Below, piece after piece: positions 45,718-60,343 of a DNA stretch of 64,000 nucleotides. The notes below the pieces were generated by a model that saw only the letters and a program-made list of their open reading frames with translations, made no database searches and was not told the DNA's origin. The first letter of the stretch is position 1, and every line of letters starts with the position of its first letter. Both the position numbers and the translations under genes were made by a program. The stretch is taken from contig OY970342.1 of assembly GCA_963717505.1 (NCBI GenBank), positions 298,791 to 362,790 of the forward strand, written 5' to 3'. The DNA is from Candidatus Eiseniibacteriota bacterium (GTDB lineage Bacteria > Eisenbacteria > RBG-16-71-46).

Positions 45718-46613
45718 GCCCCCAGATACGCCAGCAGCGGCGTCAGCGTCAGCGGGCTCAAGAGCGTCGTCACCACCACCACCGACGTGACGAACTCGGG
45801 CTCCAGGTCGTACTCGGTCGCGAGGATGGTGCAGATCACGGCCGACGGCATCGCCGCCTGAAGGATTCCGGCCTGGCGCGCGGGACCGACCAGCCCGAAC
45901 AGGGGCGCCAGCGCAATCCCCGCGGCGGCGCCACCCAACAAGCGCAGGGCCGAGACCCCGAGCACCGGTCGCCACGGTGCGCGCACGCCACGCCCGTAGA
46001 GCTGGATGCCCAGGATCGCGATGAAGGTCGGCACGCACGCGCTCGACAGCAGGTCGACGGCACGCTGCGCGGGCAACGGCAGCGACCACCCTGTCGTGTT
46101 CACGATCAACGCTGCAACCACCGCCCAGACCGACGACACTCGGATCAATCCGCGGGCCGCGACCAGGGGGTGCGTGTTCCCGCTCGAGGCGATCAAGACA
46201 CCGACCGTGAACGTCAGCACCGACGAGGACGCGAAGAACAATCCCGCGTTAGCGACTCCGGGCTCGCCGAAGGCGAACAAGTTTGCCGAGAGTCCGAAGT
46301 TGCCGGCGTTCGGCAGCATCACCACTAGGGCCGCCGCGGCAACGGTCTTGCGTGGCCAGCCGAGTGCGCGGCCGATGAGTGCAGTGATCGCGGCGAGGAT
46401 CAGCAGCGTGGCGAACGCGAAGCCCATCATGCGCAAGAGCGCAACCGAGTCGCCGTTGCGCGTGATCACGTCGAACACGAAGCACGGCGCCAGCAGGTTG
46501 AACGCCAGTGAGGTGACTGGCTTGGCGTCGAGCCGCGTGCGCCACGCGAGCAGCCAGCCAGCGCCGGCCACCAGGAGGACCGGCAGCAGGTTGTCGGCGA
46601 AGAGCCGGAGCAC
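45714..46613 (-). CDS. AEC-family (auxin efflux carrier / MdcF-like) transporter
   Basis: 299 aa and ~10 TM. N-terminal MLRLFADNLLPVLLVAGAGWLL typical of the family. GTG start at 46613. Confidence 0.75.
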   Translation of the reverse strand: MLRLFADNLLPVLLVAGAGWLLAWRTRLDAKPVTSLAFNLLAPCFVFDVITRNGDSVALLRMMGFAFATLLILAAITALIGRALGWPRKTVAAAALVVMLPNAGNFGLSANLFAFGEPGVANAGLFFASSSVLTFTVGVLIASSGNTHPLVAARGLIRVSSVWAVVAALIVNTTGWSLPLPAQRAVDLLSSACVPTFIAILGIQLYGRGVRAPWRPVLGVSALRLLGGAAAGIALAPLFGLVGPARQAGILQAAMPSAVICTILATEYDLEPEFVTSVVVVTTLLSPLTLTPLLAYLGA

Positions 46614-46629
46614 GTTAGGGCGAGGTTCG

Positions 46630-48463
46630 CTAGGGTCGGGTCGCGCCGGCGCCCTGCTCTTCGGACGCCATCCAGATCTCGATCTGCTGCCTCAACACCG
46701 GCAGCGCCACCGCCCCGTTGCTTGAGCACGGCGTCGTGGAAGCGGCGGATGTCGAACTTGTCGCCCAGCCGCTTCTTCGCCTCCTCGCGCAACGCCAGGA
46801 TCTCGAGCTGGCCGCACTTGTAGGCCAGAGCCTGCGCCGGCCAGGCGATGTAGCGATCGACCTCGTTCTCGATGTTGTTCCTCGCCAGCACCGAGTTCTC
46901 GAACATGTAATCGATCGCTTGCTGGCGACTCCAGCCCATCTGATGGATTCCGGTGTCGACCACCAGGCGGCACGCACGCCACGCGTCGTAGGACAGCATG
47001 CCGATCCGGTCGATGTCGCTCGAATAGAGACCCATCTCGTCCGACAACCGCTCGGTGTACAGCGCCCAGCCTTCGACGTAGGCGGTCACGCCCGAGTACT
47101 TGCGGAACTCGGGGATGTCCTGCAGCTCCCCGGCGATCGCGATCTGCAGGTGGTGCCCCGGAATCGCCTCGTGGAACGCCAGGGCTTCGGCTTCGTAGCG
47201 CGGCCGGGTCTCGGGCTTGTAGGTGTTGATCATGTAGTAGCCGGGCCGCGTGCCGTCGGCTGCGGGTTCCCGGTAGTAGGCGATCGTCGACTGGGGCGCT
47301 TCGTGCATGCCCATCACCTTCACTTCGCAGTCGGCCTTGGGCAGGATGCCGAACCATTCGGGGATCGCCTTGCGCGCCCGTTCCAGGGACTCGCTCGCCT
47401 TGTGCTCGACTTCCTCGGCTGTGGCGAACTGCATCTTCGGGTCTTCGCGCAGCATTTTCTGGATGGTCGCGACGTCGCTGGTGCCGAGCGCTTTCTGGCC
47501 GAGCGCGCTCAGGTCGCGCCGAAACTTCGCGACCTCCTCGAGACCCAGCTGGTGCAGCTCCTCGGGCGTGCGATCGAGCGAGGTCTGCGCCCGGATGCGC
47601 ACCTGGTAGCACTCATTGCCGTCGGGAATCCACGAGAGCCCCGGCTGCTCGGTGGAGCGCGCGACCGGCAGCACCTCCTTCTCGAGGAATTCCCGGTAGC
47701 GCTTGAACGACGGCGCCACCACCTGGGTCACCGCTTGCGTCAGCTTCTCCGTGAAGCGGTCGCGATCGCGCAACGACCACGCATCGCGGCGAACCTTGGC
47801 CGGCGACATCAACGCCCAGTCGGCGATCGGCGTGGCTTCGATCGACTTCAGTTGATCGATCGACTTCTGCACGCCGGCGATGCTCGAGGTGCGCTTCGAG
47901 GCCAAGCCGCGCTTCAGGTTCGCGATGTGCTGGTCGACGTACGGACCCATGGCGCGACAACGGGTCACGTACTTGTCGGCGTCCTTGGGCGTCTCGATCC
48001 GCGTCAGATCGGGCAGGTTGAAGAACTCGAGGTGGGGTCCGTTCATCGGGTCGACGGTCCATTCCTCGAAATGACACTTCATGCTCGACAGTTCGCTCTC
48101 GACTTCCTCGATCAGTACCGCGCGCGTCAGCCGGTCGACGCTCGACAGCGCGTCCACCGGAACGGCCTTCACCCGCTTGAGGATCGTTTCGAGACGGCGT
48201 TGGTCGTCGAGCAGCCCCTGGGGCGAGTTGTTCTCCAGCCGGTCGTCGTAGCGTCGATCGCCCAGCGTGGTCGCCATGGTCGGGCGGGCGCGCAACACGC
48301 CTTCCCAATAGTCGCGGCAGACCGCAGACATCTCCTGCGCGGCGCGCGTGGCCGTCTGTGCGCTCACTTGCGAATGAGTGGAGGCGTCATCGGCGGACGA
48401 GCCTTCCGGCGCCAAGGCGATCAGCATCGCGATCGCGACCCAAAACCGTTCGACGGCGACCAT
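46630..48463 (-). CDS. Secreted DUF885-family protein (metallopeptidase-like fold); apparent frameshift ~46720 near 3' end
   Basis: ATG 48463 (MVAVERFWVAIAMLIALAPEGSSA signal). DUF885 core with …HEAIPGHHLQ…. After …RRFHDAVL the conserved C-terminus (NGAVALPVLRQQIEIWMASEEQ…) continues in another frame and ends at 46630. The track ORF's readthrough to 46466 is judged artefactual. Confidence 0.65.
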
Positions 48464-48490
48464 CGAATTTCCCCCGGTTGTGAAATGCAC

Positions 48491-51746: not shown

Positions 51747-52145
51747 ATGCGTTCCGTGCCGAGACTGCTCTTGCTCGCCCCGCTCCTGCTGTTCGTGGCC
51801 GGCTGCACGTCGGGGCTCAAGAAACCGATCACCACCGCCGAGATCCAGCCCGACAGCCAGGGGATTCAGCGCGTCGAGCTGAACATGCACAGCTACTACT
51901 TCGAACCCAGCCGGATCGTGGTCCACACCGGGCTTCCGGTGGAGCTGGTGCTCAAGAACCGGGCGAAACTCGTGCCCCACAACGTGACCTTCGTCGACAC
52001 CTCGTTCGCCAAGAGCGAGGGCGCGTGGCTCGGAACCGGTCACCTGAAGTTCACTCCGCAACGGCAGGGTGAGTTCGAGTTCTATTGCAAGGTCGACGCC
52101 CACGCGAAAAAGGGAATGACTGGCGTGCTCGTCGTGGTGCCATGA
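51747..52145 (+). CDS. Cupredoxin (plastocyanin/azurin-like type-1 copper) lipoprotein
   Basis: RBS GGGAGGG upstream. Lipobox FVAGC. Cu ligands His (VPHNV), Cys (FYCKVDAH), His, Met (KKGM). Confidence 0.8.
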   Translation: MRSVPRLLLLAPLLLFVAGCTSGLKKPITTAEIQPDSQGIQRVELNMHSYYFEPSRIVVHTGLPVELVLKNRAKLVPHNVTFVDTSFAKSEGAWLGTGHLKFTPQRQGEFEFYCKVDAHAKKGMTGVLVVVP

Positions 52146-53221
52146 TCCCGCGGCTGGTGGCGCTGGCCACCGCCGTTCCCCCCCACGTCGTCGGCCAGGA
52201 CGAAGCGCGCGAGTTCTCGCGCAACCTCTTCCGCGAGGTGCTGACCGAGGACAAGGACCGCCTGCTCGCGATCTTCGACAACGCTGGAATCAAGAACCGA
52301 AACGTGTGCGCGCCGCTCGAGTGGTACGCGCACGACCACAGCTTCGCCGAGAAGAACGACCTCTACATCGAGAACGCCGTTCGCCTCGGCGCCCAGGTCG
52401 CCCGGGACGTGATGGCGAAGGCCGGGCTCGGCCCCGGCGACGTCGACCATCTGGTGTTCGTGTCGTCGACCGGAATCGCCGCGCCCAGCGTCGACGCGCG
52501 GCTGGCCAACGAGCTGGGATTCCGCAGCGACTTCAAGCGCACGCCAATCTGGGGACTCGGGTGCGCGGGCGGCGCGGCCGGGCTGGCGCGGGCGCGCGAG
52601 TTCGCGCTCGCTGATCCCGGGTCGCGAGTTCTCCTGATCGCGCTCGAGCTGTGCAGCATCACCTTCCAGCGCAACGATCTCTCCAAACGCAACCTGGTCG
52701 CGGCGTCCTTGTTCGGCGACGGCGCGGCGGCGGCTTTAGTGGTGGCCGACGACGGCGCCCCGCACAACGGCCACCGGCCGCTCGATCTGGTCGCGACCTC
52801 GAGCACGTTCTGGTCGGACACGCTCGACGTCATGGGCTGGGACGTGGACGGCACCGGGCTGCACGTGATCTTCGCCCGCGACATTCCGACCATCGTCCAC
52901 GAGCGCGTGCGGCCGGGGCTGGAAGAGTTTCTGGCCCGTCACGACCTGACCCTCGCGAAACTCGACCATCTCGTCGCGCATCCGGGCGGCACTAAGGTGC
53001 TGGCCGCGTATCAGGAGGCTCTGGGCTTGCAGCCCGATGCGCTCGACCACGCGCGCGAGGTGCTGCGCGACCACGGGAACATGTCGTCGCCCACCTGCTT
53101 GTTCGTGCTCGAACGCTTCATGCGGTCGGAGTCGATACGGGCGGGCGAAACCGCGGTCCTCTCCGCGCTCGGCCCCGGCTTCTGCGCCGAGTACGTCCTG
53201 CTGCGCGGGGCCTCTGCATGA
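52142..53221 (+). CDS. Type III polyketide synthase (chalcone/stilbene-synthase family; alkylresorcinol/alkylpyrone-synthase-like)
   Basis: ATG 52142 overlaps the cupredoxin stop (ATGA). Active-site Cys context WGLGCAGGAAGL, HPGGTKVL, GNMSSPTCLFVL. Confidence 0.9.
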   Translation: MIPRLVALATAVPPHVVGQDEAREFSRNLFREVLTEDKDRLLAIFDNAGIKNRNVCAPLEWYAHDHSFAEKNDLYIENAVRLGAQVARDVMAKAGLGPGDVDHLVFVSSTGIAAPSVDARLANELGFRSDFKRTPIWGLGCAGGAAGLARAREFALADPGSRVLLIALELCSITFQRNDLSKRNLVAASLFGDGAAAALVVADDGAPHNGHRPLDLVATSSTFWSDTLDVMGWDVDGTGLHVIFARDIPTIVHERVRPGLEEFLARHDLTLAKLDHLVAHPGGTKVLAAYQEALGLQPDALDHAREVLRDHGNMSSPTCLFVLERFMRSESIRAGETAVLSALGPGFCAEYVLLRGASA

Positions 53222-58967: not shown

Positions 58968-59651
58968 CTATGCGAAGCTGTCCGACTGGGGATCCCAGAA
59001 GTCGCCGACGAGCCCAATGCCCGCGAAGATCCGGCGGATCTCGTCGGGCTGGGGACGGCGGGAGTTCTCGTCGAGCCTGGTCGAGTACCAGGTGGTCGCG
59101 AGCTGCCAGAGCTGGCCCATGCCGACGATCGGGCGCACCGGATGTCCGTTCGCTGCGCACCACTGACGCACCCGCTCTTCCGACCGGAAGAAGAGCATGT
59201 TCCTTCAGGTGAAGACCAAGTCGTTCCACCACTGGGCGGCGGGAACCAGGCAGTGGAACAGCCAATCCGAAGGACCTGGGCCGTCGACGCCGACTTCCAT
59301 CTCCAGAGGCTCGAGCGACTGCTCGCATCGCGAGCGGACGGTGCCCGCTCGACGCAGCGCCGCTGGAATGCCGAGGGCGTCCCAGGCGCAATTCGCGAAG
59401 TAGTCGACCCCGCCCGACGTGATTTTGTGCTGCGTGGGCACGCCGGAGAACGGTGGCGCCATCCGGATCGAGACGCCATCCGGCTCGAGCAGCAGCACGC
59501 GCAGCGCACGCAGCCTTCCGTAGGCTTCGACCACGGCGTCGCGAGTCGAGCCGACGCGCTCGGCGACCACCTCGGGCGTCGGCCTACGGCCGGTTTCGGC
59601 AAAGTACCGGTAGACCGCCATCTTCACCCGGACGTCGAAGTCGGCGGTCAT
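58968..59651 (-). CDS. Organomercurial lyase MerB-like protein with a single in-frame TGA (59205-59207) aligned to the catalytic Cys159 position
   Basis: ATG 59651 (ATGA overlap with the HAD gene). …DYFANCAWDALGIP… matches MerB YAWCALDTLIFP (Cys96/Asp99). …WWNDLVFT-TGA-RNMLFFRSEERVRQW… aligns with MerB …[20 protein letters not shown]…. Track ORFs 59205..59762 and 58968..59198 are in the same frame. Confidence 0.6.
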
Positions 59652-60343
59652 GGCACGAGCTGACGAGCCAGAGTCGCGAGGTCGGGAACCTCGAGGTCCG
59701 GCGCGGCGTCGGAGAGCGGTGTCGCTCCTTCGCCCGGTTTTCCTTGACGCCGGTTGACCCACACGGTCGACAGACCCAGACGCTTGGCGGGAGCGATGTC
59801 GTGATAGCGACTCTGCGCGACATGAAGGATTCGGCTTCGCGGCACCGTGATGCGCTCGAAGGCACGCAGGAAATTCTTCTCGGAAGGCTTGTACGACCGC
59901 GCCTGCTGCGCAGTGACGATCCAGTCGAACTTCACACCCAGTTTGCTTGCCGAATGCTGGAACAGGTCGTCGTCGATGTTCGAGATGACCGCGAGCTTGT
60001 ACCGCTTCGCGAGCGCGCGCAGCGCTTCAGCGGAGTCCGGAAACGCCGGCCAGTCGGCGACCGATTGCGCGAAGGTCTCGCGCTCGGCGCGGGTCGGCTT
60101 GAACCCGAACTTGGCGCCCAGCCCTTCCAACACTCGGGTCAGGACCACGCGATACTCGACATAGGGCCCGGCTTCGACTTGGCTCTCGAGCCGGCCAAAG
60201 AGAACGAGCGCGGCTTCCGGCTCGACGGTGGCGCCGCAGGCGGCGGCGATCGGCAGCAGGGCGTTCAGAATCCCCTGCTCCCAGTCGATCAAGGTTCCGT
60301 AGCAGTCGAAGGTCAAGACTTCGTAGGCTGCGGGGTCGATCAT
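59648..60343 (-). CDS. HAD-superfamily hydrolase, L-2-haloacid-dehalogenase-like (subfamily IA)
   Basis: ATG 60343 (MIDPAAYEVLTFDCYGTLIDWE: DxYGTL nucleophile motif). …ISNIDDD…, …SYKPSEKNF… (Lys). The alternative upstream ATG 60415 adds 24 aa. Confidence 0.75.
   Translation of the reverse strand: MIDPAAYEVLTFDCYGTLIDWEQGILNALLPIAAACGATVEPEAALVLFGRLESQVEAGPYVEYRVVLTRVLEGLGAKFGFKPTRAERETFAQSVADWPAFPDSAEALRALAKRYKLAVISNIDDDLFQHSASKLGVKFDWIVTAQQARSYKPSEKNFLRAFERITVPRSRILHVAQSRYHDIAPAKRLGLSTVWVNRRQGKPGEGATPLSDAAPDLEVPDLATLARQLVP

Follow-up and report, generated by a model that had tools for sequence, protein, structure and literature searches.

A MerB-like gene of Candidatus Eiseniibacteriota with an in-frame TGA at the catalytic cysteine position is very probably an intact selenoprotein gene

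Selenocysteine (Sec) at a catalytic position of the MerB (organomercurial lyase) family has a precedent in the selenoprotein SaoL, which is MerB-like and contains a Cys-Sec dipeptide; its Sec162 is aligned to Cys159 of MerB (Haft & Gwadz, 10.1101/2022.07.06.499078). SaoL is found in the strict anaerobes Clostridioides, Brachyspira and Syntrophobacter, where it is part of a nine-gene SAO locus (10.1101/2022.07.06.499078), and it is the sole MerB-like entry (motif CU, model NF040728) in the catalogues of 2022 and 2026 (PMC9312934, PMC13188914). Here, we analyse a MerB-like gene in a 64,000-nucleotide stretch of Candidatus Eiseniibacteriota DNA (contig OY970342.1, positions 298,791 to 362,790; assembly GCA_963717505.1), hereafter called the window, whose reading frame is interrupted by a TGA codon in the column of MerB Cys159 and which, on sequence grounds, is very probably a real and intact selenoprotein gene. 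An earlier note on this DNA had proposed Sec at this codon and had assumed that no Sec-containing enzyme of the MerB family was described, an assumption that does not stand, as SaoL (NF040728) had already been described in 2022 with its Sec162 at MerB Cys159. In the full texts searched for MerB, alkylmercury or organomercurial lyase together with selenoprotein, we found nothing beyond SaoL (other cases are possible), and neither MerB nor mercury is mentioned in the papers on deep-Sep and BSepDB. The clade to which the window gene belongs appears to be uncatalogued.

The TGA is the single internal stop in the frame that leads from the ATG to the terminal TAG (Table 1), with 148 codons before it and 78 after it. 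The two open reading frames (ORFs) 59205..59762 and 58968..59198, both on the minus strand, had been read in the earlier note as belonging to one frame; they are indeed the two halves of the 58968..59651 frame, and what lies between them is the TGA followed by AGG and AAC, two sense codons. An assembly error is excluded as the source of the TGA, as the same 148-amino-acid (aa) product stopping at this codon, identical in sequence, was called on contigs of two independent sequencing runs (ERR12036786 and ERR15459708). Nor is TGA a general sense codon in this genome, as it terminates the overlapping upstream HAD-family gene.

When the stop is read as Cys, the Pfam MerB family (PF03243) matches residues 68-189, spanning the TGA, with a score of 94.6 bits (cutoff 27). 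The top PDB sequence match of the window protein is MerB2 (5C17), in which the stop is aligned with the active-site Cys, and a profile of the family detects MerB2 (8e-16) and E. coli MerB (about 1e-9) among solved structures. On E. coli MerB, this profile equates Cys88 with Cys96, Asp91 with Asp99 and the TGA column with Cys159. Both the placement of the TGA on catalytic Cys159 and the intactness of the Cys96/Asp99 motif, as read in the earlier note, are thereby borne out: the family-profile alignment and the MerB2 alignment agree on the former, and Cys88 and Asp91 lie in the motif FANCAWD, where they are invariant in an alignment of 18 sequences (A1). The Cys159 column of the window protein is nevertheless occupied by the TGA codon (proposed Sec) and not by Cys, and the two are functionally analogous rather than identical. 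Compared with MerB of E. coli R831b (PDB 3F0P and 1S6L) and MerB2 of B. megaterium (PDB 5C17), the window protein shares the fold and has equivalents of Cys96, Asp99 and Cys117, but it has Sec in place of Cys159, lacks Cys160, is only ~20% identical and carries an additional conserved C-terminal segment (residues 190-227). It also fails the equivalog cutoffs of MerB from mer operons (46.5 versus 193 bits for NCBIfam NF009710 and 38.4 versus 200 bits for NF033555), and no NCBIfam model reaches its cutoff with this protein.

For comparisons among relatives, we used the DNA of one genome per GTDB species, retaining the best 80 of 378 relatives. These 80 orthologs span more than 10 phyla, their GC content at the locus ranges from 43 to 73%, and their tblastn matches cover residues ~4-226. 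They belong to Acidobacteriota (21), Verrucomicrobiota (20), Chloroflexota (10), Gemmatimonadota (9), Eisenbacteria (9) and eleven other lineages. Like the window protein, SaoL belongs to the PF03243 family, has Sec in the MerB Cys159 column together with equivalents of Cys96 and Asp99, acts on an uncertain substrate, and is routinely cut at the UGA in databases. However, assigning the window protein to SaoL was rejected on the basis of its score, its Sec dipeptide and its surroundings. The SaoL model gives it 30.4 bits (cutoff 140), over residues 29-120 only. Sec is preceded by Thr in the window protein (motif FTU), as it is in 80/80 orthologs, whereas it is preceded by Cys in SaoL (CU). No SAO neighbourhood, a locus that includes the ABC transporter SaoB/SaoP, is observed at the window gene, and no neighbours are shared by more than 7/80 loci, Sao families not having been searched by name. 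In addition, 78 residues follow Sec in the window protein, versus ~50 in SaoL, and carriers of the window clade belong mostly to soil and sediment phyla, whereas SaoL carriers are strict anaerobes.

The codon at the Sec site is TGA in 81/81 copies (the window and 80 species), and neither TAA, TAG nor any sense codon is found there. In contrast, the 80 orthologs end in a mixture of stop codons (30 TGA, 29 TAG and 21 TAA). The comparison of this codon among relatives (TGC or TGT versus TGA), proposed in the earlier note, yields TGA in 80/80 orthologs and TGC in the three distant Cys forms whose DNA was read (see below). Beyond the TGA, the frame continues as the conserved x-N-M-L-F-F-R-S-E-E-R-V-R-E-W-C and onwards. 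Pairwise divergence at codon positions 1, 2 and 3 is 0.24, 0.20 and 0.56 upstream of the TGA and 0.24, 0.19 and 0.53 downstream of it, and amino-acid identity among orthologs is 68% on either side. As divergence by codon position and identity are equal on both sides, we conclude that translation continues in frame through the 78 downstream codons and that selection acts on them just as it does on the 148 upstream codons.

Databases routinely list this protein as truncated. Among the best 120 database homologs (63-89% identity), 115 are 145-160 aa long, and all of the truncated homologs aligned in A1 (16/16) end at '...VFT', which is the point where the window protein itself stops. In GenBank, including recent records of metagenome-assembled genomes (MAGs), orthologs are labelled as 146-148 aa 'organomercurial lyase'. 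One apparently full-length call of 225 aa (JGI; P0005, at L084:191-868) shows Trp at the Sec site, but the underlying DNA reads TGA, so that the call evidently relied on a genetic code that reads TGA as Trp. Such calls disguise selenoproteins as apparent Trp variants, and P0261 ('FYTWDT') may be another instance of the same artefact. Three other 'read-through' homologs (P0002, P0003 and P0011) have an irregular sequence at the Sec site (ETTCLLFF, TTCFSSGWEE and FIRSNMLFF, respectively); a frameshift or a variant assembly is the probable cause, rather than a genuine Cys or Arg at the site. Finally, a much more divergent relative on a short contig from a farmland metagenome (L085:1-610), ~41% identical in the C-terminal part, keeps both the TGA and a cucuuccggucggaaga hairpin, indicating that the Sec form reaches well past the group of 63-89% identity. 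The first ~60 codons of this frame on the contig contain two stops and are unlike the family, and similarity to MerB starts at the WDALG motif, ~50 codons before the TGA.

More distant relatives provide the Cys counterpart of the proposed Sec. The exact 76-aa ORF that follows the TGA served as query against 1.8 billion cluster representatives. Most matches are fragments of 70-80 aa starting at the same Met, that is, further split Sec forms, but the search also returned full-length proteins of 216-233 aa, 35-41% identical in the matched segment, which have Cys in the TGA column, in motifs such as FTCGTLL and FACSS. Against the whole window protein, four of these Cys forms show 31-35% identity, and identity between the Cys clade and the aligned Sec form P0005 is 27-42%. 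In the three Cys-form loci whose DNA was read (L086-L088), the Cys codon is TGC (3/3) and the hairpin of the selenocysteine insertion sequence (SECIS) type described below is absent. A search started from one Cys form uncovered a small clade annotated as 'organomercurial lyase' or 'alkylmercury lyase family protein', with hosts among Planctomycetota (P0262, P0273), Actinomycetota (P0280) and Pendulispora albinea (P0285). Alignment puts the Cys of these proteins in the Sec column as well. Proteins with Cys in this column are P0213, P0262, P0239, P0232, P0259, P0223, P0269 and P0272-P0286. The Cys and Sec clades have the same architecture and length, the Cys forms being 220-233 aa long, and share the motif F-T-C/U-x-x-(L/M)-L-F-F as well as the C-terminal W..RL/F....W(R/Q)(R/K)...E...GLxGxFW. 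The Cys clade differs in having Cys (TGC) instead of Sec (TGA), in having no SECIS-type hairpin and in lacking Cys109 and Cys134 of the Sec clade, and it seems far rarer in databases (17 matches, versus thousands for the Sec form).

The Sec form carries a short hairpin that starts 12 nucleotides (nt) after the TGA, inside the codons Phe-Phe-Arg-Ser-Glu-Glu. In the RNAalifold consensus of the 80 orthologs, with the U of UGA as nt 1, nt 16-22 pair with nt 27-33 to form a 7-bp stem around a GGUC loop (nt 23-26). The small hairpin with GGU in its loop that had been noticed in the window therefore exists, and its pairs are retained in 76-80 of the 80 orthologs, its loop in 79/80. Variation is limited to alternatives between U-A and U-G and to one compensatory change, from C-G to A-U, in a Calditrichaeota copy (L038). 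At the nucleotide level, TTCTTCCGGTCGGAAGA is almost invariant in an ungapped alignment of the 80 orthologs and the window, despite the range of GC content mentioned above, and TGA-N12-TTCTTCCGGTCGGAAGA has a single occurrence in the window, versus 0/100 shuffles. Conservation extends to synonymous sites: third-position identity is 99-100% at codons +5 to +8 (Phe-Phe-Arg-Ser) and 91% at Glu +9, versus 31-65% in the degenerate codons +11 to +14 and +17 to +22, and third-position divergence is 0.15 across codons +4 to +10, versus 0.53-0.56 in the rest of the gene. Within the hairpin, Arg is encoded by CGG in 79/79 orthologs, Ser by TCG in 79/80 and Phe by TTC in 79/80, whereas the conserved Arg +13 is encoded by CGC (28), CGG (16), CGT (13) or CGA (13), and the Phe before Sec by TTC (68) or TTT (11).

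The published model of bacterial SECIS elements (bSECIS), as quoted in PMC13188914, asks for a loop of 3-9 nt with G in its first two positions, a stem of 4-16 bp, a spacing of 16-37 nt and a minimum free energy (MFE) of -7.5 or lower. The bSECIS prediction that the earlier note had suggested gives a positive answer on all four model criteria: the loop has 4 nt with G first, the stem 7 bp and the spacing 19 nt, with an MFE of -7.8 kcal/mol for the window hairpin and an average of -8.2. No Rfam family matched the hairpin. The earlier note had called its placement loosely reminiscent of bacterial SECIS elements; the likeness is confirmed, but the wording was too weak, as the GGUC loop is that of the E. 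coli fdhF SECIS shifted by 1 nt (nt 22-25 in fdhF), both elements lying in the coding sequence (CDS) directly after the UGA. The G and U of the fdhF GGUC loop are contacts of SelB. Unlike the fdhF element, the window hairpin is a short perfect stem, without a bulged U or an extended lower stem.

Structure prediction was conducted on the ortholog P0005 (59% identical), standing in for the window protein. With an input alignment that included the Cys-form clade, AlphaFold returned a model with a pLDDT of 95.8 and a pTM of 0.91 (a run with a shallow C-terminal alignment reached only a pLDDT of 63.7 and was discarded). The only significant PDB matches to this model are MerB and MerB2 (top 11 matches, E <= 0.001), on both sides of Sec, and Foldseek aligns it with MerB over ~200 columns (E-values from 6.5e-11 to 6.7e-8, TM scores of 0.5-0.7). 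As the P0005 model matches MerB across these ~200 columns, the residues that follow the UGA are integral to a single fold, which is, in the prediction, the organomercurial lyase fold with Sec at the Cys159 position. Outside the core, the match of the N-terminal region to Pfam Sigma70_r3 scores 24 bits, below the cutoff of 25.3; helices are modelled at residues 3-18, 24-30 and 35-47, with weak Foldseek matches to winged helix-turn-helix regulators, and the alignment to E. coli MerB structures begins only at about residue 69. The C-terminal region past the MerB domain is modelled at a pLDDT above 90, except for its last 5 residues. Coordinates of all these features are given in Table 1.

Table 1. 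Features of the MerB-like locus, in positions of the window
Feature	Position	Strand	Description and basis
MerB-like selenoprotein CDS (proposed)	58968..59651	-	227 codons including Sec149; ATG 59651-59649, terminator TAG 58970-58968; translation
In-frame TGA, codon 149	59205..59207	-	proposed Sec, MerB Cys159 column; TGA in 81/81
bSECIS-type hairpin	59175..59192	-	UUCUUCC-GGUC-GGAAGAG; stem 59186-59192 with 59175-59181, loop 59182-59185; RNAalifold
Cys88 codon	59388..59390	-	equivalent of MerB Cys96, motif FANCAWD; invariant in A1, aligned to MerB
Asp91 codon	59379..59381	-	equivalent of the MerB proton donor Asp99; invariant in A1, aligned to MerB
N-terminal helical (winged-helix-like) region	59517..59630	-	residues 8-45; sub-threshold Pfam Sigma70_r3 match and model
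C-terminal region past the Pfam MerB domain	58971..59084	-	residues 190-227, motif RRPxPxE...GLxGxFWDP; conserved in Sec and Cys forms
Upstream HAD-family hydrolase gene	59648..60343	-	Pfam HAD_2/Hydrolase; TGA stop overlaps the MerB-like ATG (ATGA)

The candidate selenocysteine put forward in the earlier note is thus strongly supported by four lines of evidence, namely the TGA in 81/81 copies, the equal coding constraint on both sides, the Cys in relatives and the conservation of synonymous sites in the hairpin. Several observations nonetheless weigh against it. The presence of selenium in the protein is deduced from sequence comparison. No selA, selB, selC or selD gene lies in the window, which makes up ~1.5% of the 4.16-Mb contig, and tblastn with E. 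coli SelA, SelB and SelD found nothing in the window or in the 6-kb flanks on each side of the 80 orthologs. The MFE of the hairpin is barely under the bSECIS threshold, and the 76-nt segment of the window, folded alone, is no more stable than shuffles (z = 0.32), so that the evidence for the hairpin is comparative and not thermodynamic. As the element is nearly the same in all copies, it offers little covariation (one compensatory pair), and the conservation of Phe-Phe...Ser is partly a protein-level feature of MerB (HFFAS). Finally, neither merA, merR, merT nor merP was found near the window gene, leaving no mer operon or conserved neighbourhood that would point to a role related to mercury.

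Regarding the machinery, one ortholog locus gives indirect support. In a Chloroflexia MAG, a tRNA-Sec gene (L039:7169-7264, minus strand) was detected by ARAGORN ~500 nt downstream of the ortholog; it matches Rfam RF01852 with 58.6 bits (cutoff 47) and is the sole one among the 80 ortholog loci. In the window, ARAGORN detected no tRNA, and the Rfam scan at gathering thresholds gave no match. The tRNA-Sec gene of L039 is directly followed by a tyrosine-recombinase-like (integrase-like) ORF (L039:7391-8092, plus strand), which suggests an island integrated at selC.

Three other explanations have to be weighed against Sec insertion. It is first conceivable, though quite improbable, that the UGA is subject to programmed read-through with a standard amino acid (Trp, Cys or Arg, via a near-cognate tRNA), the hairpin being a stimulator only. 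This explanation draws on the fact that Sec insertion at UGA149 is itself inferred, its machinery having been looked at for only ~1.5% of the contig. However, the hairpin fits the SelB-binding consensus (GGUC loop, spacing of 19 nt) and no known read-through signal, and the site is that of the catalytic Cys, where an exchange between Sec and Cys is the standard pattern of selenoproteins. If Cys were the residue inserted, TGC would be one mutation away, and it is precisely the codon used by the Cys-form clade. The tRNA-Sec gene adjoining one ortholog (L039) also speaks against a standard amino acid.

We consider equally slight the chance of a deliberately split gene, in which translation would stop at UGA149 and restart at Met152, the two polypeptides forming a MerB-like fold devoid of residue 159. 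The start codon at position +3 is almost invariant (AUG in 79/80 orthologs, GUG in 1/80), gene callers report the 76-aa ORF, and the sequence AGGA stands just 5' of the Met152 AUG in the window. Yet this AGGA is not conserved, as codon +1 is mostly AGC, AAC or GCN and is AGG in 7/80 only, and its spacing of 2 nt from the AUG is too short for a ribosome-binding site. Furthermore, a split gene leaves unexplained the exclusive use of TGA, the coincidence with the catalytic-Cys column and the Cys of full-length relatives, as well as the frozen hairpin with its SelB-type GGUC loop, and it would lose a catalytic metal ligand together with residue 159.

Lastly, a nonsense mutation or pseudogene (the alternative kept in the earlier note) or a sequencing error, which would leave only a 148-aa N-terminal fragment or nothing functional, is excluded: gene callers and GenBank do annotate a 146-148 aa 'organomercurial lyase', and no Sec machinery is visible in the window, but the TGA is invariant in the same column of 81/81 genomes of many phyla without ever becoming TAA or TAG, purifying selection acts alike on the codons before and after it, the latter encoding an integral part of the MerB fold, relatives have Cys at the site, the hairpin is conserved, and the same product occurs on contigs of two independent runs.

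If the window gene encodes a selenoprotein, its expression and chemistry may be pictured as follows. During translation, the hairpin located 12 nt past UGA149 would present its GGUC tetraloop at nt 23-26; SelB loaded with Sec-tRNA(Sec) would bind this loop, and the UGA would be read as Sec, yielding a protein of 227 residues. By analogy with MerB, the metal of an organometallic substrate would then be bound by the Cys88 thiolate and the Sec149 selenolate, while the leaving carbon would receive a proton from Asp91, resulting in cleavage of the carbon-metal bond. The selenolate, which would replace one of the thiolates, would bring a lower pKa and a very high affinity for soft metals. The substrate may be an organomercurial or another organometal(loid). 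Three additional cysteines are conserved to various extents in the Sec clade: Cys109 (59325-59327, minus strand), invariant in A1 and equivalent to MerB Cys117; Cys134 (59250-59252, minus strand), invariant in A1 and replaced by Ser in some of the 80 orthologs; and Cys165 (59157-59159, minus strand), kept in 78/80 orthologs. For the selenolate, these cysteines may provide a resolving or metal-transfer thiol.

The genomic context of the gene is not conserved. In the window, the HAD-family gene and the MerB-like gene overlap by 4 nt (59648-59651), and the pair is also called on two Logan contigs; both genes are probably co-transcribed, and the ATGA overlap implies translational coupling. No such pairing was found beside the orthologs in the 80 other genomes. 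A GNAT acetyltransferase gene comes next after the MerB-like gene, and genes for an ABC-F ATPase, an M20 peptidase and an outer-membrane beta-barrel protein lie nearby. The orthologs at the 80 other loci show no linkage to the HAD, GNAT, ABC-F or M20 genes seen in the window, and when the ORFs flanking these 80 loci were clustered, no neighbour family was present in more than 7 of them. In the absence of a conserved neighbour in 80 loci, we regard the gene as a stand-alone unit whose neighbourhood gives no clue to the substrate. No overlapping gene, in whichever frame or strand, is conserved among the orthologs. When the locus was compared with plasmids by megablast, the only matches were trivial ones to ABC-F. 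Also in the window, an unrelated type III polyketide synthase gene (chalcone/stilbene synthase-like; 52085-53221, plus strand) lies ~6 kb away. One other candidate for a gene split by TGA (47853-47855, plus strand) was considered, being the only other site in the window with stop-free flanks of high third-position GC content; it was dismissed as an apparent frame artefact of high GC content, lying antisense to a 674-aa ORF (46466..48490, minus strand).

Since SaoL had already established Sec at MerB Cys159, the clade of the window gene is to be seen not as a first case but as an extension, distinct and widespread. Tentatively, and with rather less than even confidence, we propose that it is a second, independently recruited Sec clade of the MerB superfamily: a stand-alone 'FTU' enzyme found in hundreds of species of dominant soil phyla, in which the Sec form vastly outnumbers the Cys form, carrying one near-universally frozen SECIS hairpin, uncatalogued and annotated everywhere as a truncated lyase. 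Its substrate may be an organometal(loid) outside the mer system, or its role a detoxification of mercury and selenium that needs a selenolate. As regards annotation, hundreds of genomes and thousands of metagenome calls split one selenoprotein into a 146-148 aa 'organomercurial lyase' and an orphan ORF of 70-80 aa. The hairpin itself is a clean, strongly conserved and minimal SECIS within a CDS, and is of use to SECIS models, which are often unsuccessful with bacteria. If our interpretation is correct, this enzyme would impose a selenium requirement on Acidobacteriota, Verrucomicrobiota (including Udaeobacter), Chloroflexota, Gemmatimonadota and Eisenbacteria, implying a wider use of selenium in soil than is known, and a selenolate in the metal site of MerB would bear on mercury-selenium antagonism and on the microbial turnover of methylmercury or other organometals outside mer operons.

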